Assembly: GCA_964187785.1 (NCBI GenBank)
Contig: OZ076416.1
Location: 27,776,001-27,840,000, forward strand
Length of the DNA stretch: 64,000 bases
Source of the DNA: Amphiscolops sp. MND2022
Taxonomy: Eukaryota
Direction of reading: 5' to 3'
A program made the translations under genes and the position numbers. Below, one piece after another: positions 12,293 through 53,870 of this stretch. Under the pieces are notes generated by a model that saw only the letters and a list, made by a program, of their open reading frames with translations, was not told the DNA's origin and ran no database searches. Numbering within the stretch: the stretch's first letter is position 1; the number at the start of each line of letters is the position of its first letter.

Positions 12293-12625
12293 AACTTATA
12301 TCTCTACTTTTAAGATGAGTATTTATGGCTGGCGGCTGGATGCAGGAATGGAGAGCAGCCAAGTCTTCGGAACATGGATCACAATCCTCAGATTAGTTCT
12401 CAATCTTCTTATTTGAAAACACAACCATGCAATTCTCTAGTTATTGTCAGCACTGATGTTTTTGTATTAATAAGTGTTATTATAGTTATTTGTTTAAAGA
12501 TGCTGATCAAATAGTTAAAAGGTTAAAATTCTGTCATAGGTAAAATAGTTTTAAGGTCAAATATTTAAGAGTTCTTTCAATCAGTTCTTTTGTCCTCAAC
12601 AACGGAATGTTTCAGCTATGTTACA
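12293..12625 (-). repeat. 3' LTR (333 bp)
   Basis: Direct repeat of 26385-26717 with one substitution seen by eye (AAAATTCTG vs AAAGTTCTG). Element-strand ends are TGTAAC...ATAAGTT. Confidence 0.97.
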
Positions 12626-13292: not shown

Positions 13293-15461
13293 TCATGGGT
13301 TTAGCTCGCACTCTTTTTTATTTTTATCAAGTAGGGATGGGAACAATTTCGATGCCAGATTGTAGCGATGATAAATGTACATAAAGATCAAGTGCAAAGC
13401 TGTCGATACAATGAACACAGTTAATGTCAGCATGAATGAAATTCGGAACGGAACATACTGATTAAATTCTTTCGTTAAGGCTGGTTTCAAGAGTTTCATT
13501 TCTGATGCATATGGTCTGGCAATGTCGATCATATGTTTGACTTCACGATTCTTTGGTCCTTTTGCTAACTGTAGCTTTACCTCCTTCAATAACTTCACTC
13601 CTGCTTCAGCTTTCGATGTATAGAACGGCAATTCGTCCAAAGGGGGGACTTCCATAACCAATGAAGCGATAGGATTAGGCAGAGAAACTTGCAATTTTAT
13701 TGGTGGAATGTGAGCGCAACTTGATAGATCAGATCGGATTTTGATGTCAGTCATGATTTGCATTCCACATGCTAAAGTGATGAGACATATGCGGCATCCG
13801 CGAAAAGAAGAGCCCTGAACAGATGAAGACGAAACTTCACGAAGGGTAACTGCGTGAGCGGATTGAATTAACCAAATACCATAGCCTAAGTTTGTTGCTT
13901 GTTCTATGGCAGGCAGTTGTACAATTGTAGTATCACATACTGCAAGAGCTTCCGAAGCTGTACTAGAATATAAGGTAGCTAAACAAGACGAGTGTACCAT
14001 CTCTGTTGGAACAGACTCTGAACAGATTCGGTAACGAGATGAGCCGAGACAATGCTCAAACTGTTCTGCAGAGAGGACAGATGACTCCATGTGATCCTCC
14101 GACAAAGCTAAACATGGAGCTTCGATGTTCCATGTAAGAGCCGACTGGGGATCGTCTGGATACGGCATCGGAATTAATTTTGCTTCGTAGACAGTAAAAA
14201 CGGTTTGCTTAGATGCTAGCGGGACGTTGAGGGTCATCAAAAGACCTTCGTTAACCGTAATAGCATCTGCTAAGAGCTTGGAATCGAAGTAAGAGAGCAG
14301 ATCTGACATTGGGATAGCTAAAGACAGCCTATCCTCAGCCGTCGCCTGCTTCATTGCAACACTTCGTAGAATAGCCAATAACGATTCCGTTGGTACCAAA
14401 GACATAGGTAAATGACCTCTAAGTATAACCGGAATCGAATTTAAGATGTTCATGCGGAATGCAAATAAGGCCGCGCGATAGCTCTTAACGCTTGCATGTA
14501 TCATTGCTAGTAGCGAAGATAGGGTATCGAAATTGAAGTTTAGTTGTTGATTCGAAAAAAGCATTCGGTTGCAGTCGCGGAGTACATGAAAATTATGCTC
14601 AAAAACATCAAACTGTTGTTGAATAAGTACCCAGTTTTTGTTCTGCGTATCAACAAGTTCCCTTTGGATGTCGTGAAGGGCCGCCAATTCATTTTCAACC
14701 ATAAAAAATTTTTTGTCCGTAGATGTTGTAAATTCAGTTACATACTGGGTTAAAACGTCCTGGAAGTCTGATAGTTTGCGAATGTTCTCGGCATTTGCCT
14801 TCGCAGCATCTTGACAGGAACCAAAAATGCCTTGTAGTCCACAAGAGTCGGAACTACCGAGGGCCACTCCTCCTCCAAAAAGGCCGACTGCAGCAAGAGC
14901 CGCTAGTCCCACTTGGGATCCACGTCAGTGGCGAGTATTCCGCTGCTGTTGAGGAGGGGAGAGAAACATTGCTGTTTCATTACGTAGGAGGGCAACATCG
15001 AGTTCCGCAGTGTGGATTTCAGTTTCTATTTGTTGTAACATCCAGGTGACATTGAACGGCGTTGAATTTGTTGAAAAGTGACTTGAAAAATCCAAGGGAC
15101 AAAAAACAGATGGAAGTTCCCACATCGACGCGAATTTGGCCATTAAGGCCACAATATCTGGTTTAAGTGCGAAGTCATAAGTCGGAAAGGGGACTAAAAA
15201 TTCAATTTTTATAAATTTTTCCGCGAGCAAGATTTTACCGCGTTCATGGAACAGAACGCCCTTTTCTTGGATTTCGTTCGGGTTATTGGAGGCTTCTAAA
15301 TTAGAAAGCCACTCACTTCGAACTGAAGCAGGGGTGAAGAAAACCAGTAGGAACAAAACCAACATCGATCCGTTGTTCTTCGTGGGCTGTTTTCCCCTTT
15401 TTTTGTTTTTTTTTTGAAAGTTAGCGTAAAAGAGAAAATTGTCGACAGAATACTGTATCAA
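13293..15461 (-). pseudogene. env: Envelope / class I fusion glycoprotein, split by one in-frame TGA
   Basis: ORFs 14925-15461 and 13293-14912 are in the same frame. Order: signal peptide MLVLFLLVFFTPASVRS, RNTRH*RG furin-like site, fusion peptide GLAALAAVGLFGGGVALG, heptad region, Cys-rich region, C-terminal TM segment ISFMLTLTVFIVSTALHLIFMYIY. Confidence 0.88.
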
Positions 15462-15757: not shown

Positions 15758-16156
15758 ATGAAAGTGCTCGGCAGTGCCTTGATTACCATGTTATGGTTGT
15801 GGTATGCTGCATCGCAGGCGTGCGAGATGCAAGATTGGCAAGGCCATCGGATTTACTGCTGTGCCAACGGAACAGCTATTGAAAGCAAAATTGGACAAAA
15901 AGTATGGGTGGCGCAAAAGCCCAGAATTTGCAATTTGCCTGCGACGACAAAAATGTCTGAACAAACTAATCTGCCTAAAGTCATCATTTTGACTGTGATA
16001 ATTGTTGCCAGTGTCTGTGTCTGCCTGTGGAAGTGTCCGGTTCAAAAAGTCAGACGAATCATACGTTTTTGTGAAACAGAAACAGAAGACGAAAATCAAG
16101 TCAATGAAATGGAAGTCAAAGTAGTGAGAAAAATGCCGAAAAGCCAATCCTTTTAA
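15758..16156 (+). CDS. Small type-I membrane protein (132 aa), antisense inside the LTR element
   Basis: ATG at 15758. Signal peptide MKVLGSALITMLWLWYAASQA, 4-Cys ectodomain with an NGT sequon, TM segment VIILTVIIVASVCVCLW, charged tail. Confidence 0.6.
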   Translation: MKVLGSALITMLWLWYAASQACEMQDWQGHRIYCCANGTAIESKIGQKVWVAQKPRICNLPATTKMSEQTNLPKVIILTVIIVASVCVCLWKCPVQKVRRIIRFCETETEDENQVNEMEVKVVRKMPKSQSF

Positions 16157-16298: not shown

Positions 16299-16905
16299 TT
16301 TTTAGTCGGCGCATTTTCCTTTAAGGAAAAAAGCCCGACTATTACAGTGGCTAGTTTTTTTTTCTTTTTTTTTCGTCAGACCACAGAGCTCATCGCGTAT
16401 GTACCACTTTTTACAGAAACTGCTAAGTTCACTCAGGCCAAGTTCCACCAATGCAAACTTACTGCAAAGGGTCCCCCCTTTCGTTTTTTACCTTTTTTAC
16501 GTAACCTACAAAACCGGAAGACTCCAAAGGGTCCCCCTTTCAATTTTTTTTCGGCACTGTGCGAATTTTTTTTCGAAAATTTTTAATTTTTCAAAAGAGT
16601 CCCCCCTTCGGATTTTTTGATATTTTGCAACAGAAAGTATGTTAATGAATCCCAAAGGGTCCCCCCTTTTCATTTTTCGGCACTATGCGACGTTTTCGAA
16701 GTTTTTTTCAAAAAAAATTCAAAAAAAATTTCAAAAAAAATTTCAAAAATTTTTTTGTTTCCAGTCATATCGAGCATGAAAGGCACACTTTGGGTGTCTC
16801 GAAAGTGTTTTCAAAGCTTTTCATGAATACATCCTGGGCATATTTAGAAAACTGAGCTTTTTGAGCCTTAGATATAGCGCCGACTTTAGACGTTCCCGTC
16901 TTGTT
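16299..16905 (+). mobile_element. HINE-like family A copy nested in the LTR element
   Basis: TTTTTAGTCGGCGC...CCCGACTAT at the 5' end. GCGCCGACT plus GACG-TTCC-CGTC (16889-16900) plus TTGTT at the 3' end. Confidence 0.75.
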
Positions 16906-17148
16906 ATTTCTACTTTTGAGTTTGAACAGTTCGAAAATTTAGAATTGAAAGAATTCAGTCGCCAGTATTTGTAGCTGCCAGATAATGCGTAGAATTTCCC
17001 TTCCAGCAAACTCGTACGCGGAGCAATATTCCTAAATGAACGTCACGCAGAGGTCAAATGTGAAGGCAAAGAGCAAACCAAAATTCAAGCTAAAGTGAAA
17101 GAAAACGTTTGAAAACAAAGGCGTGTAAATTAAGTTATTTCAGGAAGC

Positions 17149-18362
17149 ATGGAAAACACTCTGTATAGAGCAATCTGTGAAATGAAAAAGAACAATGAAG
17201 TAGATAAATTGGTTTGCCAAACAAAGGGTCAAAAAGATGTATGGGTGAAACGACTCAGGCGTTTCACTGTAAATGGAATGGGAGTGCTGTTCTGGAACGG
17301 TCAAAAGGTGCCAACATTAGAGGAACTGACTACCGTCCTATGGCCTCGCCATGCAAATGAGAAAAAACACATACAAGATGAAGGTTTCTTTCGGAAAGTA
17401 TTGTCCAACAAAGGATATGTGTTGCCGTCATTCATCGGGGGCCTCGAGCGGGCCGTAAAAACGTAGGTAGTGATATTTGGTGAAAACAAAGTCGTAAGAG
17501 GACAAAAACGGAGTTATCATTTTGTAGATTCTTGCACGATTGTCCAGAGTGCTTCTGGACAAGGCAAGCGGGATATCGTTGGCAGAGAGCAACGAGCGTG
17601 TCACGAAGAGAGCGACAAATTGCTTGTGAGAAATTGGGACTGACTTGGAAGAAAATGACAGACGAGCCAGAGGATGGAACAGTATTTGGATTAGGCGAAC
17701 CGCCAGTGGCATCCTGTAAAGCGATTCTAGCCCAAGGTGGTGGGAAGTGCTGGGCATCCAGCGTGTTTTATTTTCTTACTGGGAAAAAAAGTGGTAAGCG
17801 TACGTTATCTTAAAGGGGTTATCTGCAGAACTCTACTGATGTGCGAGAGATGAGATAAGTGTTGTTCCAGATAAAAAAAAGGACGGCTCTGCGTTGAAAC
17901 GAATCAGAGATACAATCGGAAATCACATGAAAACAGCCGAATTTCAAAAGTTTTGTATAGAGTGCCTGGAATATGCTCCCAATGAGTTCGAACTCAATGC
18001 TGTACTCCAATCAAATCTCGACATTAGTGAACCTTGGGTAAGACCATGTACAATAGGTAACTGAAACGATAGACGAGTAACTCAACTACATTATCGTGTT
18101 ATAGATGTTGGGGACTGCTCAAGTGCTAGGATGGGACATGTTAGTCTTCTGGAGATACTCGGAAAAAAAGGATGGATTCGCTATCCAGCCAAAACAAGGG
18201 GCCCGTCATCAAGGGCCGCATTTCTCTTTCACGTGATTCATTCCGAGAAGGAGAAAATTTCATTGTGAGCCACTAATAGATTGGCCAATCGAAAAGTTAG
18301 TTGTGACAAATTATGAACATGTAAAAGGAAAGCTGGAGTGTAATGCCGTTATCTATATGTAG
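17149..18362 (+). CDS. Four-exon antisense gene: H2C2 Zn-binding-like N-terminus plus OTU-like cysteine protease (about 334 aa)
   Basis: Exons 17149-17462, 17528-17793, 17871-18037 and 18105-18362, joined in frame by GT-AG introns of 65, 77 and 67 nt. Motifs: H-x5-H...CPEC, QGGGKCWASSVFYFLTG, MLGTAQVLGWDMLVF, FHCEPL. One TGA at 18234-18236 in exon 4. Confidence 0.65.
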
Positions 18363-18906
18363 CGACGATCTAACGTATGAAGGAAATGGGGAGTGCTATA
18401 AGCCACCCGCAAAGAAGGCAAGAAAATACTGGAACTGATCAGATCACTGACTGATTCATCATCTCATATCAAAAGTCACAAAAGACATCGAACTCAGGAA
18501 GTTTAAGCTTTTGTTCACGAAATTCTTATAATACTAGTAGGGAAGCAAGCGGATTGCTGGCAGAGGGGCTCGAGCCAAGTACAATGGTCTTTCAGCTGCG
18601 AAAACCATCAAAAGATGTAAAATTTTTCTGAAAACAATGAGATCTCGAGGCGCGCCGTACGGCGAGGAAAATTTTTTTTCTTTCACGATTCCACTAAAAA
18701 GGGTGTCACTCGAAAGAGCATGGTAAAAAAGGGGGGGACACCGAAAATCCAGGTTGGGTACGAAAATTTAACAGTGAAAAAAGTTCTCTTGAAAAGGGCG
18801 ATTTTCATGTTTGTTGTGTTTTTGGTAATACGTTAACTGAAAGAAGAGTAAAGAGCGACGTCTAGTGAGTGAAAAGCGATTGCATGACCCCAAGAACGAT
18901 CGGTCA

Positions 18907-19323
18907 TTAACGTGGGGGCTGAATGATTGTAATAGTAATCTGAGACTTTGAGAAAGTACGATATAAAAGGGAAAAAACAGTTGGCCAATGTAATCGCTCA
19001 AGACCGCTTCCGAGTCGCGGGATGCTAAGTGCTCGAATTTTATGGCGCTCTAAATGCTGACGAAGGGCCATCAAACTCAATTGAAGTGTTTCGTAGTTAG
19101 GTTGATGAAAAAATCGTTTTTTGGTCACTAAATTATAGATATAACGTTGATGAAGTCTGTCAAAATAAGAGACCAGTGATCCCGGCGGTAAACGTTTTTG
19201 AGTGTTAAAACGAAGCTGGCGAAGCGCAGGGTGGCGGTAAGCGATGGCAGATGCTAGACCGCGTTTCATATGAAAGTCAGCGGAAACACAGTGAGCTATA
19301 GACTCTGTAGAGTCTAGGATATT
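18907..19323 (-). CDS. TARG1/OARD1-like macrodomain (frameshifted C-terminal end of pol)
   Basis: NILDSTESIAHCVSADFHMKRGLA...YIYNLVTKKRFFHQPNYETLQLSL...LSIPRLGSGLERLHWPTV follows the OARD1-family pattern (SLAHCIS.D..MG.GIA...YIYYLITK.R...P.Y..L..SL...SMPRIGCGLDRL.W). Confidence 0.85.
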   Translation of the reverse strand, partial: NILDSTESIAHCVSADFHMKRGLASAIAYRHPALRQLRFNTQKRLPPGSLVSYFDRLHQRYIYNLVTKKRFFHQPNYETLQLSLMALRQHLERHKIRALSIPRLGSGLERLHWPTVFSLLYRTFSKSQITITIIQPPR

Positions 19324-20346
19324 CGAAAGAAAAGCAAAAGTTCGGATGACTGTCAGAGGAAATAGAGTTTAAAACATTAGATGAGGACAGTCTTTTCTTC
19401 AAATTACGGAAATTATAGCGTGCTTTTACTTCCTTTTGGTGCTGAAGATACTCCTGAGGAGATTGCGGTGTCAGCTGTTGCGTGGTAGTTGGGTGGACCC
19501 GTGGACTTGCATCAGAAGGAGGTCGAGTTCGTTGACAAGAGTCGAGCAAGAGTGTGCGCTTATCTGCCTTCAGGAAGCTTGTACCTGGAACCTGAGTCAG
19601 CGCTGTTCTAGGTGACGGTTGTCCATATGATTTAGGTCCACGTCCAATAAAGACTGGTACTGTTTCACGATTCTCATCGAAATTCAAAGTGCAATTAGTG
19701 CGAGATGAGGTAGTCGGAAGTTTCGGACGGACTGTACGTGATTCTTGCTCGGCCAAGGTGGGTGTAGATGCACCTGCGTAGCGTGCCTGGTCGGCATCTG
19801 AAGTCGTTCGTGGAGTGACGGAGAATCTGTGGATTCATCGTCAAGATATGGCACAAGCGCTGGTTGTTGTTCTTCGTCCTGGGCTGGCAGTGCGGGAATT
19901 GCTGGAGCTGCTGCTGTAGCTGGTAGGGGTGGAACTGCTGGCCCTGGAGCTGGTCCCATCGGGATAACAGCTGGTGCAATAGGAAAACTAAGCGAAACCG
20001 TAACCGGTGGAGGCTTTTCTTCGTTGTGAGCCACCCTAGTTTCCTCTGAGGGAGGTAACAGAAGAGTTGGAATGCTTTCATCGAAAATAGCTGGTTCTCC
20101 ACGGAATCGCCCAAGCATAGGATCGCGTTTAAATTTCTCCTGGTCAATTTGCGGTAAGTCGTCAACTTGATATTGCGGTACAACCGGTCGGAGACGGATT
20201 CGATGTACACATTGAGTATAATTTGTACCGACCTTGCGGATGATGTAATTTGAATTGGTTAAAACTTGCTCGACGCGATACAATGGTAGCCAGATAGGAA
20301 GGAACTTACTCGAAAAATCGGACTGCGTCATTAGTTTTGGATTCAA
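19277..20346 (-). pseudogene. pol C-terminal extension (integrase tail plus Pro/Ala-rich linker) in two frameshifted pieces
   Basis: 19684-20346 continues the integrase C-terminus (LYRVEQVLTNSNYIIRKVGT...VHRIRLRP). 19277-19756 continues the linker towards the macrodomain. Confidence 0.7.
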
Positions 20347-23300
20347 AAGAAGACAAAACGAGAATTGTTTTAGAGGTTGCGCTTCGTAATCTTAAGGTAG
20401 CTTTGTAATCATAATATGCGCGGTATCTATTATACATTTCAGTCAATTTACTTTTTGCTGCAGAAAATTTCTGTAGCATGGCATCCTGCAATGCAAGCAC
20501 ATATTCTGTAGTCGGTTGCGCACGTGCAAGCGAACTGTTATTAAACCTGAGATCTAAAGGTTTCAGAGGCTCTCGACAATGAAACAAGGTGGTCGGGCTC
20601 GTTCCGATTGCAAAATGATAAGTATTATGAATGAAAGCTGCAAGTTGTACATACTTGTACCAGTCGTTCCACTGCTGAGTGGTGTTTAGTTTCAAGATTC
20701 GTTTAAGGGCGCTATGCGAGCGCTCCACAACACCGACAGTTTGCGGGTGCTTTAGACTGGCATGTTCTAATTTTATTTCCAAAAGTTTAGTCAATTCGTG
20801 CATCAATTCACTCACAAAAGTAGTACCCAAGTCGGATAAAATTGTTTTTGGAAGATAACTATGACGGAAAAATATCGACGCAAGTTCTCGTGCAACGGTT
20901 TCTGACCTCCCATTAGTAAGTGGGACTGCAAAAAGATATTTTGTAAAAACATCAATACCCGTAAGAACATAACGGTAGAGCAGAGACTGTAACGGACCGA
21001 CAAGGTCAATTTGTAACATTTCGCCCGGGTAAGATTTCAACAAGGAGACCGGTTGTAACGGAGTTTTCAGATTTTTGCTTGGTACACGTTTCAGTTGCAA
21101 ACATTGTAGACAGTTTTGGATAGTTGACGTTAAGTATTCTGTAAAATTCGGAAAATAAAAGCGTTTTCTAAATTCTTCAACCGTTTTATTGATTCCCATA
21201 TGGCCTGCTGTCGGCGAGTTATGCAAGCGGTAAATTACTTCGCGCCATAGGGATTTAGGGACACAGAACTGTTTGTGTTGCACTTTTCCTTGATCGTCAT
21301 AAAAAAGGCGATAAAGAACTTTGTCCTGAATGATTAGGCGTGGAAACTGTTTACGATATTTTCGCAAAGCTATCGGTAAATTTGGCGACATGTCCGGCGA
21401 GCCTCGGTCTTTCCATTGCATTACTTCACGAATGATCTCGTCTTGATTTTGTACTAGAGCGAGGTCTATTGGCTCTGACCGGTTGGGCAAATCATCAAGA
21501 ATGTCGCTGAATTCTTCTGACGAGACTAAGTTTATTTGATTTATTTGACAGAAAGAGTAAAAGCCAGTGATGTCAAGAGACGGGGTAGTCTGCGCTTCGG
21601 TTGTTTTCTGTAAAAACTGTTCGTAGAGACCAAATTCTTTCAATTGTGAAATTAGGCGTTCGTCAGCCTGATCGTCAACAGATTCCGGAAAAGGTGATCT
21701 ATCCGAAATATTTGATAAAGCGACATCAGGAGATTTCGCTTCGGTTGCTATTTCAATATCTTTAATAGGTATACGATCAGTTAATTTGAGAGACAGGGTT
21801 AGAGTAGGGTCTGTTTGCATTCGTGATAAAAAATCTGCGGCCGAATACGCTTCACCAGGAATATGAGCAAGGAGAATGTTGAAAGACAAAACTCTATCCA
21901 AACAGTTCCATAACGATGGATGAATACTTTTAGATTGGAAAAATTGCGTGAGACTACGGTTATCGGTTAAGACTAGCACAGGTTTAGTTGCGCCCCATAT
22001 AAAATGTGCAAAATGGTCTAAGGCGAAATAGAGAGCAAGAAATTCTTTATAGTAAACCGAAAATTTCAATTGCGTCGGACCAAACAACCGAGATCCAAAG
22101 GAGACCGGCGCGTATACTTTTTTCTCTTTTCCTTGTTGATCTAACAAGTAGTCCTCAATCATGAGGACAAAGCCTGTGCCATGGTAACTAGCGTCACAAA
22201 GGAGTACGTATTGGAGACCAGGTTTTGCCAATCGCAAAGTAGAGTTGGTAGCATTTCGTAAATCGGTTTTCAATAAATCTAGTGCTTCGCTATGTTCTTT
22301 AGTGGTTTTAAATTCTACATCTTTTCGCAAAAGTTTGTAAAATGGTAGCAATTTTTGGCCCAAGTTGGGCATGAACGAACGAAAAAATTGGACAAATCCA
22401 ATCAATCTTTTCACTTGTTTAACAGTTTCTGGCATTCTGATTTTTTCGAGAAATTTGTTTATTTTGTCAGCTTCTGGTGAGATTCCTTTAGGTGTTATGG
22501 TGCTTCCCAAATAATCAATCTTGGTCGTCCCAAATTCACATTTATGAGCAGACAATTTTAATCCTGATGCACGCAGGCAATCAAAAATTTTTGTTAAAGC
22601 AGGAGTCATCTCATCAAAATTGTTTACTCCCATGGCAATGTCGTCCATGAATTGAGTACAAACATTGGCAGCAAGACATTTATCTAAGTAGTGTTTAACG
22701 AACGAACTAAATCCGGTGACGGATTTGTTCAGGCCTTGGGCTAAACAATTATAAGCAAATGTACGCGAAGCGAAATTAAATGCCAGCAACTGTACCGAAA
22801 GGTCATCTGCCATTTGAACGCAATGGTATGCTTGCGAACAATCAAGTTTACAAAATAACTTCTTTCCCGCAAAATGGTTTGTCGCATCTGTCATATTTGA
22901 AATGAGGAAATTGCTATTTAAGTAATCATGGCGTAGGAGGTGATTGACTCTTCTGAGATCGATAAGTATGCGAAGCTTGCCATATGGTTTGCGATGTACA
23001 AATATCGGACTAGAATATTTGGAGTGTGACAACGTAGTTATGATGTTAAAATATTGTAATAACGCCAATTCAACTAAAATTTCATCACGCAAATGAATCG
23101 GTGCTGGTGGACCTTGAACGTATACCGGAAGTTGATGAGCAGGCGTTAATTTGATCTTCAATTCTGTGTTATACCCAACATCAAAGCGATGTTTTGCAAA
23201 CACGTCATGATATTCAACAAGAAAGTCCTCCAATTTTGATTTTTCATCAGCGCTCAAAACACATGTATCCCACGTAAATTTTTTCAAACATTCTTGTCTA

Positions 23301-24415
23301 TCGTGTGGATTGCTTTTTGGGTTTATTTTTTCACAACGTTGAAGTTGCAATATTTGGTCGTAAATTTCACGTTGCAACGGTGACAAATTTGAAAGATCTG
23401 TACATGTTTCGGGAGTCGGAAACCAAAGTTTTGAGTAATCTGGTGGCGGCCGACCATTGTCAGTGTCAAATTTCTGAAAGTGGATATCTTGAATGAGCTG
23501 ATTAAGTTCATTTTCAAAATCGTCGGGTCTTCTAATTTTTGCGAGTGCCAATAATTGTGGATCTATTTCAAGGAGATACTCAGCCTGTGACTCGCTCAAA
23601 ATTTCGAAATGTGCAATTTGTTTTTTGCTATTTAGCGTAATCTGGGAATCGGACAAATTGATCGCTGATATGTATATTTTATTGTCATTATCCATCTTGC
23701 TCAGAGACGAAGTTAATGCAACATTGGCTTTGTCCTCCAGATTCTTGTTTGGAATTACTAATCCTGTGCAATTGGCGAACTGGTCAGTATATTCATCCAA
23801 ATAGCATTCAAGGAGGACTTGTTGCTGCGGTCCAATATTGACTTTTTTGCTCAATAGGATAGGTATATTTTTCATTTTTTTCACAAATTGTCGTTTTTTT
23901 CCAGCGTCCGGTTTCATTTCATTGAGTTGAACCGTAAAGTCGGGCAGTTTCAGTAAGTTGTTTTTGGGGTCTATCGTGATATTCTGTTTTTTAAAGGAAG
24001 AGTTTCCCAAAATTACACTATTCATTTTTGGTAGCACGAGAAAACTGTCCGTAAAGGAATGAATTCCAATACAGAATGTGAGATTCACCTGATTGTCAAC
24101 TGACACTCGTTGTCCTGAAGCCATGCGGACAGACGTATAATTTGGAGTTTCATTTTTAATTAAGTCGGGATGACTCAAACGTAATTCGTCGTATAAATTT
24201 TGAGGCAATGCATTAGCGCAGGCGCCTGTATCAATGAGGGCTCTCCGACGAATGTTCGGAGAAAATTTCAATTTAACGTAGGAAAGATTTTCACCTTCAA
24301 GAGGCAAAACAGCGCATATATCTGGCTTTTTTAATTCTATGTTACATGTGTGTGGCTCATTGGACTGGTTTTCATGTAGAGAAATAGACGGTGGAATCTT
24401 GTGCTGCGTTTTTAG
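20306..24415 (-). CDS. pol: Pol polyprotein (aspartic protease, RT, RNase H, integrase)
   Basis: ALIDTGA (PR), LDCSQAY and QFMDD (RT), LCDASYHG/TDNRSL (RNase H), H..H..C..C, QIDLVGP, SDLG and ER..S (integrase). The frame is open from the frameshift site at 24415. Confidence 0.95.
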   Translation of the reverse strand, partial: LKTQHKIPPSISLHENQSNEPHTCNIELKKPDICAVLPLEGENLSYVKLKFSPNIRRRALIDTGACANALPQNLYDELRLSHPDLIKNETPNYTSVRMASGQRVSVDNQVNLTFCIGIHSFTDSFLVLPKMNSVILGNSSFKKQNITIDPKNNLLKLPDFTVQLNEMKPDAGKKRQFVKKMKNIPILLSKKVNIGPQQQVLLECYLDEYTDQFANCTGLVIPNKNLEDKANVALTSSLSKMDNDNKIYISAINLSDSQITLNSKKQIAHFEILSESQAEYLLEIDPQLLALAKIRRPDDFENELNQLIQDIHFQKFDTDNGRPPPDYSKLWFPTPETCTDLSNLSPLQREIYDQILQLQRCEKINPKSNPHDRQECLKKFTWDTCVLSADEKSKLEDFLVEYHDVFAKHRFDVGYNTELKIKLTPAHQLPVYVQGPPAPIHLRDEILVELALLQYFNIITTLSHSKYSSPIFVHRKPYGKLRILIDLRRVNHLLRHDYLNSNFLISNMTDATNHFAGKKLFCKLDCSQAYHCVQMADDLSVQLLAFNFASRTFAYNCLAQGLNKSVTGFSSFVKHYLDKCLAANVCTQFMDDIAMGVNNFDEMTPALTKIFDCLRASGLKLSAHKCEFGTTKIDYLGSTITPKGISPEADKINKFLEKIRMPETVKQVKRLIGFVQFFRSFMPNLGQKLLPFYKLLRKDVEFKTTKEHSEALDLLKTDLRNATNSTLRLAKPGLQYVLLCDASYHGTGFVLMIEDYLLDQQGKEKKVYAPVSFGSRLFGPTQLKFSVYYKEFLALYFALDHFAHFIWGATKPVLVLTDNRSLTQFFQSKSIHPSLWNCLDRVLSFNILLAHIPGEAYSAADFLSRMQTDPTLTLSLKLTDRIPIKDIEIATEAKSPDVALSNISDRSPFPESVDDQADERLISQLKEFGLYEQFLQKTTEAQTTPSLDITGFYSFCQINQINLVSSEEFSDILDDLPNRSEPIDLALVQNQDEIIREVMQWKDRGSPDMSPNLPIALRKYRKQFPRLIIQDKVLYRLFYDDQGKVQHKQFCVPKSLWREVIYRLHNSPTAGHMGINKTVEEFRKRFYFPNFTEYLTSTIQNCLQCLQLKRVPSKNLKTPLQPVSLLKSYPGEMLQIDLVGPLQSLLYRYVLTGIDVFTKYLFAVPLTNGRSETVARELASIFFRHSYLPKTILSDLGTTFVSELMHELTKLLEIKLEHASLKHPQTVGVVERSHSALKRILKLNTTQQWNDWYKYVQLAAFIHNTYHFAIGTSPTTLFHCREPLKPLDLRFNNSSLARAQPTTEYVLALQDAMLQKFSAAKSKLTEMYNRYRAYYDYKATLRLRSATSKTILVLSSFESKTNDAVRFFE

Positions 24416-25725
24416 TTTTTTTGATTTTGATTGAACGGCATTTGGGCTCCTCGTTGTGGCGGGTTACCTTGCGCAGTACAATCTTTTGCTAGATGATTCG
24501 GATATCCGCAATTATAGCAAGTATGTGTTGATTGTTGTGTATAAGGCATGTAATGCGGATCCGGAGTAAAAACTTCAAATGTAGTTTGCGATGAACCTTG
24601 ATTGGAATTCCCTTGTTGAAAGTTTTCCTGATTATGATTTGACCATTGTTGCTGACTATTTTGATTCTGATTAAAATTTGAATTTTGGTAATTTTGATTT
24701 GACTGATTGTAATTTCTGCCGTAATTGTTCTGCCAAGGTCGTCCTCGAACTTGGTAACCTCGACCTCGGTTTCCACGGTTATTGCCGCGATACCGACCAC
24801 GGTAATTTCCTCGATTTCCGCGATAGCCTTGGCCACGATAGTTTTGAGAGCCGCGTTGCGAATTGTTTTGGTTTTGCTGATTTTGTAACTGAGTGGTAAA
24901 ATTCGTAGCTTGCTCTTCTAGTTTTTTGGACATTTCGTTCAGTCGATTGTCCATAGTTTCTTGACTATGGCTCAATTTTGTAAGAGCTGTAACTAAAGTA
25001 TCAGATACTGAAGGGCGCACTTCACTGAAAGCATCCATAACCGAATCTTCAACTTCACAAAGGTTATAGATCGAAAGTTGTTTCCGAGCAAATATACACA
25101 AATCTTCAACCGTTGTATTTTCCGGTTGTTCCAAAAGTTTCGCTCGAAGCCAGCCCGGCATATTTTTTATAAATTGTCTCCGAATCTGAGTGGAGCGCGC
25201 TTGTTGCGCTGAATGAATTATTTCGGCTCTTCTGGCGGTTTCAGAATCAAATCGTGTTTGTTCGACTGCTGCGTCCGGCGCGGCACCGTCAATTGGTGCT
25301 ACTGCGGGTGGATTTGGGTCGGGATAAGCTTTAAGTGCTTTCGTTTGTAACGTGACTAAAAAATTCTCTGGATTGTCTGTTTTGGGATCGAATTTTAAGT
25401 TTTCCAATTTAAGAACATGCAATTCCTGAAGTCTTGGATTACAAAAGTGATCACGAAGAGCTGTCAAAGAGAGGTCTAAGTCCGCACGTGTTGCTACCGG
25501 TAGTGTTTGAAAATAGCGGAGCGCAGCGTCTCTAAGATGAAGTTGTAAAAAGTTGGCTTGCTGCGCTTGCGGTACCGCAGCTACTGCTAAGATACTTCGT
25601 AACAAATGTTCGAATTCACGAAAATTTTCCTTTTCTAAACCCGAGTAGGGTGTTAGCGAGAGTTGAGGTAAAGCAGCCATGATTTGAAAAGTTAAGTGTA
25701 AAATAAAGAGTGACGAATAAGACAA
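24412..25725 (-). CDS. gag: Gag with C-terminal CCHC zinc knuckle
   Basis: 437-aa ORF upstream of pol, with an RG/N/Q-rich nucleocapsid region and CYNCGYPNHLAKDC. Confidence 0.92.
   Translation of the reverse strand: MSYSSLFILHLTFQIMAALPQLSLTPYSGLEKENFREFEHLLRSILAVAAVPQAQQANFLQLHLRDAALRYFQTLPVATRADLDLSLTALRDHFCNPRLQELHVLKLENLKFDPKTDNPENFLVTLQTKALKAYPDPNPPAVAPIDGAAPDAAVEQTRFDSETARRAEIIHSAQQARSTQIRRQFIKNMPGWLRAKLLEQPENTTVEDLCIFARKQLSIYNLCEVEDSVMDAFSEVRPSVSDTLVTALTKLSHSQETMDNRLNEMSKKLEEQATNFTTQLQNQQNQNNSQRGSQNYRGQGYRGNRGNYRGRYRGNNRGNRGRGYQVRGRPWQNNYGRNYNQSNQNYQNSNFNQNQNSQQQWSNHNQENFQQGNSNQGSSQTTFEVFTPDPHYMPYTQQSTHTCYNCGYPNHLAKDCTAQGNPPQRGAQMPFNQNQKN
24415..24421 (-). promoter_or_regulatory. -1 ribosomal frameshift slippery site A_AAA_AAC (gag-pol)
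   Basis: Heptamer is in the correct phase immediately before the gag TAA. The -1 frame is stop-free and continuous with pol. Confidence 0.8.
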
Positions 25726-26385: not shown

Positions 26386-26717
26386 ACTTATATCTCTACT
26401 TTTAAGATGAGTATTTATGGCTGGCGGCTGGATGCAGGAATGGAGAGCAGCCAAGTCTTCGGAACATGGATCACAATCCTCAGATTAGTTCTCAATCTTC
26501 TTATTTGAAAACACAACCATGCAATTCTCTAGTTATTGTCAGCACTGATGTTTTTGTATTAATAAGTGTTATTATAGTTATTTGTTTAAAGATGCTGATC
26601 AAATAGTTAAAAGGTTAAAGTTCTGTCATAGGTAAAATAGTTTTAAGGTCAAATATTTAAGAGTTCTTTCAATCAGTTCTTTTGTCCTCAACAACGGAAT
26701 GTTTCAGCTATGTTACA
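26385..26717 (-). repeat. 5' LTR (333 bp)
   Basis: Direct repeat of 12293-12625, followed by the TSD CGAC. Confidence 0.97.
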
Positions 26718-30361: not shown

Positions 30362-30630
30362 GACGTGAACGTCCAAAGTCCACGCTATATCCAAGGCTCA
30401 AAAAGCGCAAAGTTTTTAAACCTGTAAAAGGGGGACCCTTCGGGTTTTTTGAAAATCCAGTTTGTTGCAAAATATCAAATATATTGAAGGGGGCCGAATA
30501 AAGACTGTACTGACGAGTACACGTGAACGAGTGAAGTCTGTAAAAAGTGGTACATACACGATGAGGTCTGACAAAAAAAGGAAAAAAACTAATAGTCGGA
30601 CTCTTTTCACTAGAAAAGCGCCGACTAAAA
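30362..30630 (-). mobile_element. HINE-like family A copy inserted in the hAT Zn-finger coding region
   Basis: GACG-TGAA-CGTC stem at the left and GCGCCGACTAAAA at the right. The flanks rejoin as about FHIK(K)HVLSEKH. Confidence 0.65.
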
Positions 30631-31400
30631 CATGTTCTGAGCGAGAAGCACAAGCGTAATTTTGCTTCGAACGCCAGTAGACAACAAAAACTGGCTTTTG
30701 GGGCAGAAAAAGGAAGGAACCTCTTTTATACAGACTTACTACAAGCATTCATCGCAGCAAATATCCCGCTAAAAAAACTTGAGAACGAGGTGTTTTCATC
30801 GTTCCTCGAAGTGTACACCGGGACAAAACTACCAGATGAATCCACTCTACGGAAAAACTACCTGGGCGAGGAAAGTTCCGCTGCTTTACAATCAATTACT
30901 ACAAAACTCAAAGATAAATGTTTCTACGTACAAATTGATGAGTGCACCGACAGCTGCGGCCGTTTTATTATTGCTATTCTAATCGGCAGTCTTGAAGAGG
31001 GTTCAGTTACAGTTCCTTATCTCGTGGAAATTGTGGAATGCCAAGTTACGAACCATTCAACAATTATTCAAGTTATCATGGACATACAGTACAGAGTTTT
31101 TGGCAGCGTTCACCATGAAAAGTTTACCTTATTGTTGAGCGATGGAGCTAGTTATATGATGAAGGCAGGAAAAATTCGAGAAAAATTCCCTAAAATGTTA
31201 CATGTTACCTGCTCAGCACACTGTATTCAACGCCTGACGGAATTCATTAAATCGAAATTTGAACGCCAAGATAAATTTATAAAACGCACTAAAGCGTCTT
31301 TTAACAACACAAGGCGACTACGGCTTTTTAAAGAAAGAACTGGACTAACGAGACCACCTCAACCAGTGGAGTCAAGGTGGGGTACTTGGCAGGGGGCATG

Positions 31401-31724
31401 TTTTTAGTCTTTTATGCTTCCAAAAGTAGAGGGGAGACCAAAGGGTCCCCCCTTTGCGGTTTTTTTCGGCACTATGCGACATTTTTTCAGAAAATTTTTG
31501 AATTCTATCAAATACCCCTTGAATTTTTTGAAGTTTTCAATTTGTAAAAAACGTTTAATAAGCCTAAAGGGTATCTATTTGGGTTTTTCGGCAATATGCG
31601 ACTTTTTTTCACCAAATACTATTTTTGACACAAAAAAACTTCCAAGTTTTTCCAATTGGTGGTCCTTGAATATTTTTGACCTTTTTGGTCATATGAAGCC
31701 GACTTGGGCCGTTCCCGGCTTGTT
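31401..31724 (+). mobile_element. HINE-like family A copy inserted in the hAT transposase
   Basis: TTTTTAGTC at the start and GCCGACTTGGGCCGTTCCCGGCTTGTT at the end. Confidence 0.65.
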
Positions 31725-35803: not shown

Positions 35804-36108
35804 ATTTTGATGGAAATCAACAATAAAATTGACCCTGAAAATTAAACACGCAGAGGTTAAAATACCAGATTTATTTTGACACTTCGCCACGCTAATCAAT
35901 AAATTTTTCCAGTCAAATCAGTTGTGCGTACCAAAAATATCGTGAGAAAGTTGCAATCAAGCCGGTGATTAATCTTTTCCAATTCAGACGCTAATATGAC
36001 TTTTTGATTTTTTCCCACCAAAAAGATGACATATCACAAGTCGATTGAAAATAAAAACCGAGTCCAGAAGTTGCATTTCATTTCAACTGAAAACTTTGTC
36101 AGTACATC

Positions 36109-38053
36109 ATGACTTCCACTACAAAAGAATTTTCCACTGAACGTATGAGATACCTTCTATACGAGACAAACAAAGTCTTCACACAAAAAACCTGGGACTC
36201 TTCTGATCAAGACGACAGTGTGACAGAACCCATACCCAAAAAAGAATACAATCCATTGAGAAACACAACCCATTTGGTCGAAAGTCTCAAAAAATTCCTC
36301 GAATGGGTTATAGATTACTCCAACTTGGAATTTTGCGTGGCTCTGCATGCGAAGGAAGACGACGCAAACGAAATGGATATTTGCCAGAGTTATGGAAGAC
36401 TGCACTATCACGTGATACTCTATAGTGTGAAATTTCCCAAAACCATGGATAAAATTATCAAAAAGAACTTTACCACTGCCCTCGAGGAAACCATGAACTC
36501 GCAGAACAACTACAGAATTGAAATGTTCAGCACAAAGAGTTCATCTTTTCGAAGAGAATTTTTGAGAAACACAAAAACTTTGGTGACACATGGGCCATCT
36601 ATTCAACAGCACTTGAAGGGATTGAATCATACAAGCAGCCGCAATCACGTTGACTGTATCTGGGACAAATGTCAAAAAACTGGGCGGTATGAAGCAAGCC
36701 GCGACACAATCATCGATCGAACCCAAAAATTCTAGACAACGTTGAAGAGTTGGAAAAATCCGCCAGTCAGTTCAAACATGTGATACCCGATATCGTCAAC
36801 TTCCTCACCCAAAACAGCTATGCAGGGTGGCCACTTCAAAATTTCAAATTTGGGGGCAGATGCAAATCTATCTGAAATGTTACAAAATTAACGGAAATCA
36901 TGGTTAATAAATATCATTATGCCGTGGCATGTTGAAAGTACTTGAAAACAACAGGTTAGAGGAATGATATCTTCGCTCACCGCGCATAGTATTGCAATTA
37001 TCAGTCATAACGTAAGCAATCTGCTCGTAGTTAAGCTTAAACTCAGCAAGTACGGTACAGAAGGCATCAAAAACAGCACTGGAACCGACAAATTCGACAT
37101 CTGATAGCTTCTTTACGGAGTCATTCAAAAACTCATCAACCGAAAATTTTGCTTCCAATTCAATTGTTCTGAGATAAGAATTCTTTCTCAATTCCCCATC
37201 AAAGTGAACGATCCAGAATTCGAGGCGGCATTTCTTATGGTAGCTCGATTCATCCATATGAATACCCACACGGTCACAGGAAGTGATTTTATCGGTGACT
37301 TGGTCTCTTACAAATGGGGCTATCGCTCTCGTTATGATGTATCCCGTTTTCGTTTTCCCACAATTAATCGCAGCAAAGGAGCTATCTGGGAACATCACCT
37401 TGTAAAGTGACCGATTGCGACTAAAGCATTCGCTGGATCTAAAGCTTGCGTCATCCACGATGATCTTCAAGCAATGATAAATAGTTGCACGCAGCACGCC
37501 GGTCTCCTTACTGCAACTCGTATAAAGCGCCGCGGCAATGTTTGGAGTACGGCTCGAGGTTGATGGCATGTTCTTCTTGTGCATCGCCGATTGTTCATGT
37601 TGTTTCAATGCAAATAATCCTCGTGCAATTTTGACCACTGTATTGCAATATTTGCAGCGCACTGAATGGTCAAGTCCCGGAATGCGCAGTCCCCAAGCAA
37701 ACTTCTCGCTTAAGTTGTTCGTAAACTTGCAATCTCCACCCATCACTACCTGAAAACATTAAAAAATTAAGCGATACATTTATTTGGGGGTTAAAATTAT
37801 GCTGGGGGCAATTTGGGGGCATTTGGGGGTGCCCCCAAATTTGGGGGCAAAGTGGCCACCCTGCAGCTATGGATCCTTCACCAACTCCCAACACAGTTCG
37901 GTTTTAAAAGTATCACTCGACCTGACCGACGCTCAATGTTGCTGCCACGACTGCTGCTTTCCCGAAAAACAAACTCCGGAGAGCAGAAACTATCAATTCA
38001 TTGACGAAGGAACTGTCCTGTTTGAACAATCATTTGATGGTATATTCAGCTAG
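36109..38053 (+). pseudogene. HUH-motif (Rep-like) ORF of about 298 aa, broken by a 1-nt frameshift (A5 at 36725-36729) and the hAT insertion
   Basis: CVALHAKED...GRLHYHVILY motif. After removing 36823-37871 the frame runs on to a Cys-rich tail (CCCHDCC) and stops at 38053. Confidence 0.5.
36823..37863 (-). mobile_element. Internally deleted hAT transposon (1,041 bp) nested in the Polinton
   Basis: 14-bp TIR CAGGGTGGCCACTT, 8-bp TSD CAGCTATG (36815-36822 and 37864-37871), TTTGGGGGC subterminal repeats. ORF 36904-37746 has a BED-like finger (CKYC...H....H) and MDES/TDNC catalytic motifs and is 3'-truncated. Confidence 0.92.
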
Positions 38054-38071
38054 ATTTCAGTTGCTAAAAAT

Positions 38072-38506
38072 TTGCTTTCAATCATGTTGTTTCCTGAGTA
38101 TCTTGATATACAACAAGTAATAAAAAAGTTTGATGAACTAGTAATTATTTTCCCACAAAATAAGGTCAGCAAAAATGCTTTTCTCGCAGTGTGTCAGGTT
38201 ATTGACCCAACACGGGACCTGGCAGCAATAAATGTAGAATGTGAGTACGGAGGCTTGATAGGGCCAGGCAACAGTTTCCTACATCCTTTGCTTCAGAAAT
38301 TTAAACTTTTCCGTGTTCACGCGGCCTTTCATGATGCATTTGGTTTCATGAAAGAAAAGTATAATTTGGGATCAGGATATGTTTACACATTGGGTGAGGA
38401 ACCATCATTCAAAAACAGCTGCCTGTTGGGTCATTTCACCGGCTTGTTTCTTTGGATGTATCTAAAACTGACACAATCACAGATTTATTCCGAGTTGCCA
38501 TTTTGA
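38072..38506 (+). CDS. Parvovirus/adintovirus-type phospholipase A2-like protein
   Basis: YGGLIGPGN (Ca-loop-like) followed by HAAFHDAFG (catalytic HD). Confidence 0.7.
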   Translation: MLSIMLFPEYLDIQQVIKKFDELVIIFPQNKVSKNAFLAVCQVIDPTRDLAAINVECEYGGLIGPGNSFLHPLLQKFKLFRVHAAFHDAFGFMKEKYNLGSGYVYTLGEEPSFKNSCLLGHFTGLFLWMYLKLTQSQIYSELPF

Positions 38507-38522
38507 CTAGTAAGCATTCCAA

Positions 38523-38810
38523 ATGTCAGCTGCTAGCTCCAAGCTACCAAACACATCACTGCAGCTTTCATTGAATTCGAAAGTTTTCATACAATATAAT
38601 CATCAGAATCATTTTTGCATTTACCTCGAAAAGATTGATTCTGGTGTCTGTCCGCTAAACAATTACAGGTTGAGACACCTAGTTCCACTCACTTTGGAAG
38701 AACTTCTCCAACTATCGGAAGCATCGAAAATTCTTTGTTCAACCCTAGAATACAACTATAATCTTTCTAAAAAGCGAGAATACCCAGATGCCAAACCATC
38801 TCGCAAATGA
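38523..38810 (+). CDS. Polinton hypothetical protein (95 aa)
   Basis: ATG-initiated, co-oriented and tightly packed between recognisable Polinton genes. Confidence 0.45.
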   Translation: MSAASSKLPNTSLQLSLNSKVFIQYNHQNHFCIYLEKIDSGVCPLNNYRLRHLVPLTLEELLQLSEASKILCSTLEYNYNLSKKREYPDAKPSRK

Positions 38811-39099
38811 AAAAGCTAAGGATCAACCAGACACACCAATATCTGTTACTGGAGGCAGTCTGATTTTTGACAACGACGAAAACGAGAGACCTCCGTGGAA
38901 ACTTCAATGCTGTTGTATTAGAAAAGAATGTGAGCGATCGCTCCTAGTCTTATTACTGCATTATTTTATCGTCTTTTTGGTTGTGGCAGCAAGTATAGGG
39001 TTCTTATTCCTCAAGCAGAGCGAAAACAAGGGCAGCATAGGAGTGGTTGCCATCATATCAGCGTGCTTAGGCTATATAATTCCGTCACCGAGACAATGA
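38788..39099 (+). CDS. Small two-TM protein of the kind found upstream of Polinton ATPases
   Basis: CERSLLVLLLHYFIVFLVV...ISACLGYIIPSP. Its stop overlaps the ATPase ATG (ATGA at 39096-39099). Confidence 0.65.
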   Translation: MPNHLANEKAKDQPDTPISVTGGSLIFDNDENERPPWKLQCCCIRKECERSLLVLLLHYFIVFLVVAASIGFLFLKQSENKGSIGVVAIISACLGYIIPSPRQ

Positions 39100-39791
39100 A
39101 CAAAATAATCAGCACAGATCCCCACTGTTTTCTCATGGTAGTTGGACCCAGTGGCTCGGGAAAAACTTACTTAGTCTCGCAGCTTCTGAAACAGCATCAC
39201 CAAATTTTCAAACCGAACTTCCAACAATTTCTGTACTTTTATAATCATTTTCAACCCATTTATCAAGAACTGCAAGTGTTACTGGGACCAAAAACTTTTC
39301 ATCTTTGTCAAGGTGTTGACTGGTCTCTACTGGACAAGGCATCGGCGTCAAACCAACACACTCTCGTCATTTTCGACGATGTCTATCAAGAAGTAGCTGC
39401 CGCGAAAGAGTTTTTGAACCTCGTGATTTCCGGCCGACATCAGAAACTACATCTGCTGGTCCTGAAGCACAATTTGTACCAGCAGTCAACAAACTCCAAA
39501 ACGATTGATCTGAATGTTACACAATTGTTGTTGCTGAGGAACCCACGAGACACTAATCAAATTGACTACTTGGGACGACAACTTGGTTGCCGAGAACTTT
39601 TACTCAATTCGTATAAAAGAGCAACGCAAGATGAGTTTGGTCATTTGCTCATCGATCTGGATCCCCGGCTGAATGAAAACTTGCGTTTTTCTTCAAACAT
39701 AGTTTCTAAACCAGCCATTTATTACTGTAACACTTCAAACTCGACAGCAATAAACATTGATGATTCCTTCACAACATCTTTATACAATTGA
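39096..39791 (+). CDS. A32/FtsK-like genome packaging ATPase
   Basis: Walker A GPSGSGKT, Walker B VIFDD, and GRHQKLHLLVLKHNLY motif. Confidence 0.92.
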   Translation: MNKIISTDPHCFLMVVGPSGSGKTYLVSQLLKQHHQIFKPNFQQFLYFYNHFQPIYQELQVLLGPKTFHLCQGVDWSLLDKASASNQHTLVIFDDVYQEVAAAKEFLNLVISGRHQKLHLLVLKHNLYQQSTNSKTIDLNVTQLLLLRNPRDTNQIDYLGRQLGCRELLLNSYKRATQDEFGHLLIDLDPRLNENLRFSSNIVSKPAIYYCNTSNSTAINIDDSFTTSLYN

Positions 39792-40080
39792 GTTGTTCTC
39801 ATCTTTCAAACCAATACTAAAAAGACATTTCATCTTACATTGTAGTGACGATATAATAAAACTTTTCTGCAATTGCCTTTTCAACATCAAGGAAGGAGCG
39901 ATAGAGCTCAAAAATGTGAAACCTAATACTCTCAAGAAAAATAAACTGCTCATTCAACAGCTCTGTTCACCTAAGATCAGGTTGGCTGTGAAGAGAACTA
40001 CTGGCGTCCAAGCAAGGACAAAGTCTTTTACGCTTGCTAAAAACTTCAATATTAAGATATCTGAAACTACAGTGCTATGA
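39757..40080 (+). CDS. Conserved small basic Polinton ORF (C-terminal part probably frameshifted)
   Basis: LHCSDDIIKLFCNCLFNIKEGAIEL...LKKNK resembles the C-x-C..N..G ORF seen after the ATPase in Polintons. Confidence 0.5.
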   Translation: MMIPSQHLYTIELFSSFKPILKRHFILHCSDDIIKLFCNCLFNIKEGAIELKNVKPNTLKKNKLLIQQLCSPKIRLAVKRTTGVQARTKSFTLAKNFNIKISETTVL

Positions 40081-40733
40081 GCAAGCCAACAAAGCGGTTT
40101 GTACTTGTGCCAGCTGATGTGTACTTCAACCAAGGAGAGGAGAAGGCCATTAACGGCGGCTTAATTGCTCAACCATCAGTAGCAACATCTGAATCGAAAA
40201 GGGCCAAGTTTTCCGAACAAGACCTGAAAGAAGAACTTATCAAGGAAGAAACACATTGCGAATCACCTTTGGAGGTGACCACAAAAGCGAGTCAACTCGA
40301 TGTTCTAGATCGACTTGCGCCGTCGAATCGTAAAGAAGCAATCGATCAGAATAAATTGTGGAACATAAATAACAAAATACAAACAATCATTAGTAAATTG
40401 ATCGAGCTCGGCTTTAGCAGCAGCAAGTTGGAAAGATCACGAATTATATTACAATCATTTTTCAAAAATTCGCGACTGTCTCTTAACGAATTGCTGGAAA
40501 TACAACTGGACGGCAGTCCAACACAGGTAAACCTCCTAGCATTTCTGAGTGACCTTCAAGTTGCCAACAAAAAACTGGGTGAAGCATCACTGAATGTGCT
40601 GCGTATACTTAAAATCACAACTAAACACATCATAGCAAATGTCAAGGCAAAAGAGGTGGTGTCGTCAGCGGGACAAAACGATTCGACATCGAGTTCACTT
40701 TCTTCTTCGACCTTGTGGGTCGAGCGCTTCTGA
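40077..40733 (+). CDS. Polinton hypothetical protein (218 aa)
   Basis: ATG overlaps the previous stop. Starts KRFVLVP. Lies between the ATPase block and the integrase. Confidence 0.55.
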   Translation: MSKPTKRFVLVPADVYFNQGEEKAINGGLIAQPSVATSESKRAKFSEQDLKEELIKEETHCESPLEVTTKASQLDVLDRLAPSNRKEAIDQNKLWNINNKIQTIISKLIELGFSSSKLERSRIILQSFFKNSRLSLNELLEIQLDGSPTQVNLLAFLSDLQVANKKLGEASLNVLRILKITTKHIIANVKAKEVVSSAGQNDSTSSSLSSSTLWVERF

Positions 40734-41915
40734 TGACGGCCAATTAGCAGCAGAACTCATCAATCAACTCTTGATTCGAGCAGAAATTGAATTAAATCCC
40801 GGACCTCTCAAATGTAATTGCTGTAAAAAGCTTTTGGGCAAAGTACGAAAAAGGCACCAACTGTTTGGTGTCACGTTTGCGGATGGGTACACTTCAAGTG
40901 CAGTGGCTTAAACACACCATTGGATTATCAAAAGACTACCAATTTTCGGTGCCCGTGGTGTGCCACCAATACTAGATTCGCAAACGAAAGTTCAGACCCG
41001 GCACTTTTAACATTGCACAAACTCTACACTTCAACAAGCAGTCACGCCGCTTTCGGCTCGAGCGAGGTTTTGAGGAAGGCAGCAGCAACAAAAGGAATCA
41101 AGAGAAAACAAGTTGACAAATTCCTTTCACAGAGCGAAACGTACACCAAGTTCCGCGCTGGTATACACAAGTTCACCCGGCTTAAAGTGCAATCTTACCG
41201 AATCAATGAAATTTGGTCTGGTGACTTGGCAGATGTGCATCAATTAGCAAAAAACGACGGCAAGAAATTCCTCTTGGTTTTTGTGGATTGTTTGAGCCGA
41301 TTCCTCCGCGTGGAAGCAATTGAAACCAAGTCAGCGACGCAAACAAGGACTGCACTACAGCGTTTGATACGGAAGCAAAAACCAGAAAAGATTTGGGTGG
41401 ACAAAGGAAAAGAATTTAAGGGCGAATTTGCCAAGCTATGTGCAGAGAAAAACATTACAGTATATAGCACCCACAGTGAGATGAAATCATGTTTGGCCGA
41501 GCGCTACATTCGAACTCTCAAGTCAATTTTATTTAAATATTTGCATGAGAACAACACCAGTCGATACATTGATCAACTCCAAAACTTTGTTAACCTCATC
41601 AATTCTCGACCTAACAGGAATACAAAGATTGCTCCGAAAAAAGTGACAAAGAAAGATGTACCGTACCTCGTTTCGTTATCAGCCAATGCCAACCCTGTGA
41701 AAAAACCACGGTATAAGATTGGTGATACAGTAAGGATTCGATTGAAAATCCCCACTTTCAACAAGGGCTATAAAATTCAGTTTACAGAAGAAATATTTGA
41801 AATTGTAGCCAATCCGACACTGAACCCCCCGACGTACACAATAAAAGACAAGGACGGCCAAGTCATCGAAGGAAAATTCTACGAGGAAGAATTAGTTTTA
41901 TTTCGTTACAGTTGA
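40733..41915 (+). CDS. Retroviral-type (rve) Polinton integrase with a probable N-terminal 2A-like peptide and PHD finger
   Basis: WSGDLAD, VDCLSRF, WVDKGKEF and LAERYIRTLK (DDE core), then the GDTVRI...GY...FTEEIF...TY.I.D..G....GKFYEEEL tail. Upstream EIELNPGP and C4HC3-like residues join via one A in the run at 40825-40829. Confidence 0.88.
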
Positions 41916-41944
41916 GTAGGTAGCTAGATGACCTTGTGCCTGCA

Positions 41945-42787: not shown

Positions 42788-42820
42788 ACAGTTGCTAACT
42801 AAAAGACCAGAACACAATCC

Positions 42821-53811: not shown

Positions 53812-53870
53812 CAATTACGTCGTAAATGTTTAAGAACCGGTTCCTCGAAGAAACATGGAACAGAAACTAA

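Follow-up and report, generated by a model that had tools for sequence, protein, structure and literature searches.

A TARG1-class macrodomain at the C-terminus of Pol in a gypsy-type LTR element with an env-like gene

The window, by which we mean the entire 64-kb stretch of DNA analyzed, contains on its minus strand an LTR element of the gypsy type, 14.4 kb long, which includes an env-like gene as well as the macrodomain described here. The 5' LTR (26386..26717, minus strand) is followed by a primer-binding-site-like (PBS-like) stretch starting with TGG, the 3' LTR (12294..12625, minus strand) is preceded by a polypurine tract (PPT), and a 5-bp target-site duplication lies outside. The two LTRs differ by one mismatch in 335 aligned bases. 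The gag gene with its CCHC zinc knuckle (24412..25680, minus strand) was identified from its ORF and by domain search. Its end is overlapped in the -1 frame by the pol ORF (20306..24463, minus strand), and a slippery A-rich heptamer is located ahead of the gag stop. The pol ORF encodes an aspartic protease, a weak dUTPase-like domain, reverse transcriptase (RT), RNase H, and integrase. Features of Ty3/gypsy elements (Metaviridae), that is LTRs, target-site duplication, PBS, PPT, and the domain order PR-RT-RH-IN, are all present; no tRNA gene matching the PBS was found in the 64-kb window. The dUTPase-like domain lies between protease and RT (~23600-23860, minus strand; Pfam E 0.0019 in the window and 0.00023 in P0015) and is seemingly devoid of the usual catalytic motifs.

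The 3' part of pol consists of four segments, all on the minus strand. The integrase (20080..21535) includes an H2C2 zinc finger, an rve core, and a C-terminal part, and is interrupted by a break near 20385-20399. A poorly conserved linker of ~250 aa, rich in Pro, Ser, Thr, and Ala, follows (19376..20080) and is broken near 19816. A putative cleavage site of the element protease (19355..19375) stands just ahead of the macrodomain. The TARG1/OARD1-class macrodomain itself (18907..19339), delineated by phmmer, tblastn, AlphaFold2, and Foldseek, is the C-terminal domain of Pol. Its motifs are carried by a stop-to-stop frame of 153 residues (18907-19368), with the exception of the first strand of the domain (19328-19339), which sits in the neighboring frame because of a break near 19327.

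The env-like gene (13293..15365, minus strand) encodes a signal peptide, a basic cleavage-like site, a hydrophobic fusion-peptide-like stretch, and a C-terminal transmembrane segment, and is interrupted by one in-frame stop near 14925. A Pfam search with this ORF gave no match, and its look-alikes in the Atlas are F-type fusion proteins (0.91-0.94), a weak assignment with a recognition value under the threshold of the tool. Between the macrodomain and env, the plus strand carries a broken set of antisense ORFs with a CxxC pair (17149-18440), whose Cys/His pattern we take to be reminiscent of a papain- or OTU-like protease; its pieces at 17149-18265 yielded nothing usable from Pfam, NCBIfam, or Atlas. 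Just upstream of env, an intact-looking antisense ORF of 132 aa (15758-16156, plus strand) begins like a signal peptide, contains Cys residues and a single transmembrane segment, and has no Pfam match. At ~16300-16910, between the two LTRs with their single base difference, the element harbors a nested repeat that is present in many copies in the host genome. Other mobile elements in the window are a Polinton/Maverick-like cluster at ~36000-47000 (integrase 40827-41915, A32-type packaging ATPase 38934-39791, and several ORFs without a match), a LINE-type element with an L1-like ORF1 piece and an endonuclease-RT (52927-56734, plus strand), and a fragment of a hAT-type DUF659 transposase (30565-31407, plus strand). 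Judging by these types of elements, the host is probably an animal.

Parts of gag, pol, macrodomain, and env are also present on contigs of a single public run from a marine metagenome. Compared with the window, these contigs show 31 differences in 450 over the macrodomain (18937-19384), and third codon positions account for eight of the nine differences listed in env (13830-13996). A metagenome scan with a full Pol returned no relatives among 41 candidates, and a second one returned a single relative among 275, a 1.5-kb contig ending short of the macrodomain. No relatives were found among 27 viral contigs.

The preliminary description joined the macrodomain to the integrase through a Pro/Ala-rich linker, with frameshifts at about 20385, 19790, and 19330. 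When unbroken natural sister proteins are aligned to the assembled sequence by tblastn, the breaks fall at ~20385-20399, 19816, and 19327. Thus, the first and last positions agree with the earlier ones, whereas the middle one had been placed ~25 bases off. The fusion itself holds in natural copies. A search among longer proteins gave 15 matches, five of them with integrase Pfam domains. Among the cluster members listed (up to 15 per cluster, selected without regard to the macrodomain) there are 30 integrase-bearing proteins: 17 run unbroken from the integrase via the ~250-aa linker into a complete macrodomain, six reach a truncated macrodomain, and seven, including the Pol of the window, stop earlier. 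These copies show, in one ORF, the macrodomain fused in frame at the C-terminus of Pol. In the window, the insertion is young but broken, and the domain cannot be produced from this copy. We also considered a stand-alone gene of 120 aa and rejected it: the HCVSAD motif is encoded at 19276-19293, and the first Met of the macrodomain frame (19269) comes after it, within the fold. The macrodomain, therefore, has no start of its own, and the 120-aa ORF is a shortened reading.

The earlier assignment to a TARG1/DarG-like group can be narrowed. In a phmmer search against PDB, human TARG1/C6orf130 is matched at E 5e-23 (residues 20-148) and DarG at E 6e-6. The AlphaFold2 model of the macrodomain, built from a 54-sequence alignment, has a pLDDT of 94.9, and its first eight Foldseek matches are all TARG1 chains (best rank E 1.7e-13 and TM 0.86; TM range 0.82-0.88), followed by DarG at E 4e-10. 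Hence both sequence comparison and the predicted structure confirm the TARG1 class, with TARG1 closer than DarG, which is only the second-best match. DarG antitoxin identity was rejected: the score for the NCBIfam DarG equivalog is 42 bits (cut-off 250), neither a DarT partner nor the DarG C-terminal domain is present, and the context is a retroelement Pol. The Pfam search proposed in the preliminary description gave a Macro match below threshold (E 0.0096; 16.3 bits under a cut-off of 22), so that taken alone it would nearly have missed the domain; the assignment came from phmmer and Foldseek.

In TARG1, as described in PMC6397177 and 10.64898/2026.03.31.715305, Lys84 is the nucleophile and Asp125 resolves the intermediate. 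The enzyme strips ADP-ribose from thymidine in DNA (PMC8501950) and clears it from RNA bases, binding RNA via a basic surface (10.64898/2026.03.31.715305); the counterpart of Lys84 in DarG is Lys80 (PMC5179494). By alignment, the equivalent Lys in the window is found in the NLVTK motif (19120..19134, minus strand), and a Glu occupies the position of the catalytic Asp125 in the phosphate-binding GxG loop (18997..19020, minus strand). We compared the clade of this element, 51 rows that include the window copy, near-copies, and decayed copies, with 117 other TARG1-like matches. The Lys, correctly recognized in NLVTKKR by the preliminary description, is retained in 49 of the 51 clade rows, the window copy among them. 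The Asp125 column contains 43 Asp, four gaps, two Ile, one His, and one Glu. In the GSGLE variant of GCGLD noticed earlier, the Glu falls on a catalytic position and is private to the broken window copy, the only one of the 51 rows to have it. The published TARG1 pattern TKx(30,35)Px[IL]GxGxD (pattern and residue numbering from PMC6397177) is found in 36 of 51 clade rows versus 99 of 117 other matches, and the window copy fails it by having Glu for Asp. Retention of the Lys/Asp catalytic pair in the element family is shown by these aligned columns.

Other properties of the domain have changed. The median net charge is +11 in the 51 clade rows versus +4 in the 117 other TARG1-like matches, and basic surfaces serve nucleic-acid substrates in both TARG1 and DarG, as reported in 10.64898/2026.03.31.715305 and PMC5179494. 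The adenosine-binding columns (TARG1 G19-F22 and I44) are mostly S, N, I, L, and L in the clade, which is conservative but not identical, and loop 1 also deviates in one subfamily; because of these departures from TARG1 the pocket may be weakened. Such changes, together with the strong positive charge, would suit a mainly non-catalytic helper that binds nucleic acids or processes metabolites, for example ADP-ribose adducts on cDNA ends during post-integration gap repair. The binding of RNA by TARG1 through its basic surface (10.64898/2026.03.31.715305) and the fusion of the same domain, in other proteins, to repair enzymes of the DNA ligase III and PNK types point in this direction too. However, the Lys/Asp dyad and the GxG loop are present even in the most divergent subfamilies, and TARG1-like folds in RNA viruses and phages fit conflict better than repair. 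We regard the helper role as doubtful.

Comparison of subfamilies places the macrodomain between the linker and the core enzymes: it is better kept than the former and less well than protease or RT. In subfamilies with 75% identical RT, macrodomain identity is 33-43% versus 14-27% for the linker. One pair of subfamilies with 91% identity in RT has 61% in protease, 49% in macrodomain, and 29% in linker; in a pair with 75% in RT, these values are 44, 36, and 19%, respectively. A neutral, functionless passenger captured from a host TARG1 mRNA could be expected from the divergence being faster than that of the core enzymes, and from the 13 of 30 listed copies that are truncated inside or before the macrodomain. 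Nevertheless, the domain remains in frame and in the same place across subfamilies whose linkers share under 30% identity, and its catalytic columns are conserved, which makes a passenger very improbable.

The junction ahead of the macrodomain bears on whether the domain acts free or attached to the integrase. A hydrophobic tetrapeptide is located 25-28 residues ahead of the HCVSxD motif in 11 of the 14 proteins listed out of 18, with one other match in all linkers. Its pattern, which was written after inspection, resembles the protease N-terminus and RNase H-integrase junctions of the same family. A junction matrix, trained only on windows of six other Pol junctions that are themselves putative sites, ranked the window at -28/-29 first in six of ten linkers. 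In the other four, the -34 window came first in one, the site was third in one, just outside the scanned range in one, and absent in one. Pol of Ty3 is known to be processed by the element protease (PMC5371799). Taken together, these sequence patterns give moderate support to a macrodomain that would be cut free by the element protease.

The same domain is found in many other retroelement Pols, and this led us to reject a one-off capture unique to the element in the window. A profile search among proteins of 404-2000 residues gave 196 matches; among the 120 listed, 55 are accompanied by RT, RNase H, or integrase, and the catalytic pattern is present in 40 of these 55 Pol-fused matches. In total, 92 of 336 proteins, near-copies included, combine the macrodomain with Pol domains. 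The macrodomain stands before RT in six of them, after RNase H in 39 (30 with integrase following), and after integrase in 46, while one is an RT-only fragment. Harmonia axyridis, Athalia rosae, and Uroleucon formosanum are among the named carriers, as are three fish proteins that share 65-68% identity with a retrovirus-type Pol in which the macrodomain comes after integrase. Multi-copy LTR families on long ENA contigs (P0281, P0310, P0318, and P0284-P0299; clusters of 80-415 members) have the domain at other positions in Pol. Some eukaryotic and environmental proteins (P0243-P0283, P0099, P0119, and P0248) are fusions of TARG1-like domains with DNA ligase III-type, PNK3P, NADAR, TatD, and XPG-type domains, and a structure search found TARG1-like folds in phages and in RNA viruses of insects.

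Mapping the position of the macrodomain onto a quick RT-RNase H tree (42 rows) requires six changes; the sister RT lineages P0118 and P0276 differ in this position, and the family of the window forms a separate long branch, to be read with a long-branch warning. A quick tree of the macrodomain itself (51 rows) requires four changes of the Pol-fused label versus 17.2 for shuffles, and in it the ERV-type domains of fish are nested within those of insect gypsy elements. The position changes and the nesting of fish domains indicate that the module is passed between elements and shifts its place within Pol; the Pol-fused macrodomains may still share a single origin. A review (PMC4977317, citing Basta et al. 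2009) mentions occasional macro domain proteins in the epsilon-like ERVs of fish. No account of a TARG1-class domain in gypsy Pol turned up in our literature searches; subscription journals, supplements, or repeat databases could hold one. The locus represents, in broken form, an accessory module that is recurrent and apparently little described.

The preliminary description offered two roles for the fusion, protection of element cDNA or proteins from ADP-ribosylation and targeting of integration to ADP-ribosylated chromatin. For the second role, the macrodomain would stay on the integrase as a reader and tether integration to ADP-ribosylated chromatin or DNA-repair sites, similarly to the chromodomains of chromoviruses, whose targeting is described for MAGGY (10.1101/2021.11.30.470311). 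In the family of the window and in fish ERV-type Pols, a long flexible linker connects the domain to the C-terminus of integrase, which agrees with this role. On the other hand, other Pols have the domain ahead of RT (six proteins) or between RNase H and integrase, its position differs between the sister RT lineages, a protease-site-like motif separates it from the integrase, and the retained catalytic residues suit an eraser more than a reader. Given the three positions in Pol and the motif, integration targeting is disfavored, and we consider it unlikely.

Protection is the role that we prefer, on the basis of the TARG1 fold and the Lys/Asp pair kept in the family. Judging from sequence and models, the macrodomain is somewhat more probably than otherwise a long-retained accessory enzyme of an env-bearing gypsy-type family, a packaged and probably protease-released ADP-ribose hydrolase that protects the element. 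The macrodomain would be made as the last domain of Gag-Pol, as natural sister proteins show, and as such would be packaged into the particle with RT and integrase, as established for such elements. The element protease would then probably free it. Its motif and fold suggest a TARG1-like action, in which the Lys nucleophile and the Asp would take ADP-ribose off element RNA, cDNA, or proteins and so may counter ADP-ribosylation by the host. The three Pol positions seen elsewhere are what one would expect if the enzyme is released and can therefore be encoded anywhere in Pol. Against this preferred reading, the macrodomain diverges faster than the protease (49 versus 61% and 36 versus 44%).

A broader scenario is that gypsy lineages and fish retroviruses have exchanged among themselves a catalytically active TARG1-type module, which would be a widespread, position-independent counter-defense of LTR retroelements and would mark an undescribed host defense that ADP-ribosylates retroelement RNA or cDNA. 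We put this forward tentatively, as a possibility short of an even chance. Macrodomains are known counter-defenses of RNA viruses and phages. Those of the TARG1 class remove ADP-ribose from bases of DNA and RNA, and their occurrence in many retroelement Pols suggests that animal retrotransposons, too, are restricted by ADP-ribosylation. The macrodomain is a small, easily expressed handle for asking this question. Since the locus is one broken case of a recurrent feature, its own novelty is lower and the general question is worth more.

Among known systems, human TARG1/OARD1/C6orf130 (PDB 4J5Q, 4J5R, 4J5S, and 2L8R) shares the fold (TM 0.86-0.88; 34-35% identity), the HCxSxD, TK, and PxxGxGxD motifs, and the basic surface. 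The element domain differs in being fused to Pol, in being more basic, and in its adenine loop (SNIL instead of GDLF in TARG1); a Glu at the Asp125 position distinguishes the window copy alone. The macrodomain of the DarG antitoxin (PDB 5M31, 5M3E, and 5M3I) has the same fold (TM 0.86-0.89), the catalytic Lys, and an Asn in the adenine loop (N8 in DarG, according to PMC5179494), but shares only 21-24% identity, and the element is devoid of a DarT partner and of the DarG C-terminal domain. Viral macrodomains of the MacroD type (coronavirus; alphavirus nsP3) are likewise virus-encoded erasers in a replicase polyprotein that counter host PARPs (PMC6397177), but belong to another class with another mechanism and match the structure less well (TM 0.64-0.74). 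Fish epsilon-like ERVs are also retroelements with a captured macrodomain, and retrovirus-type Pols with fish relatives have it after integrase, as here; their RT is of the Retroviridae type, in contrast to the divergent gypsy-type RT of the element in the window, and their macrodomains are compared here by mention in PMC4977317 only. Finally, env-bearing Metaviridae (errantivirus-like gypsy) have in common with the element the LTRs, gag, the -1 overlap with pol, the order PR-RT-RH-IN, and a third ORF resembling F-type fusion proteins, the env assignment being weak; the element in the window differs by an RT on a long branch apart from the sampled insect elements and by its dUTPase-like and macro accessory domains.
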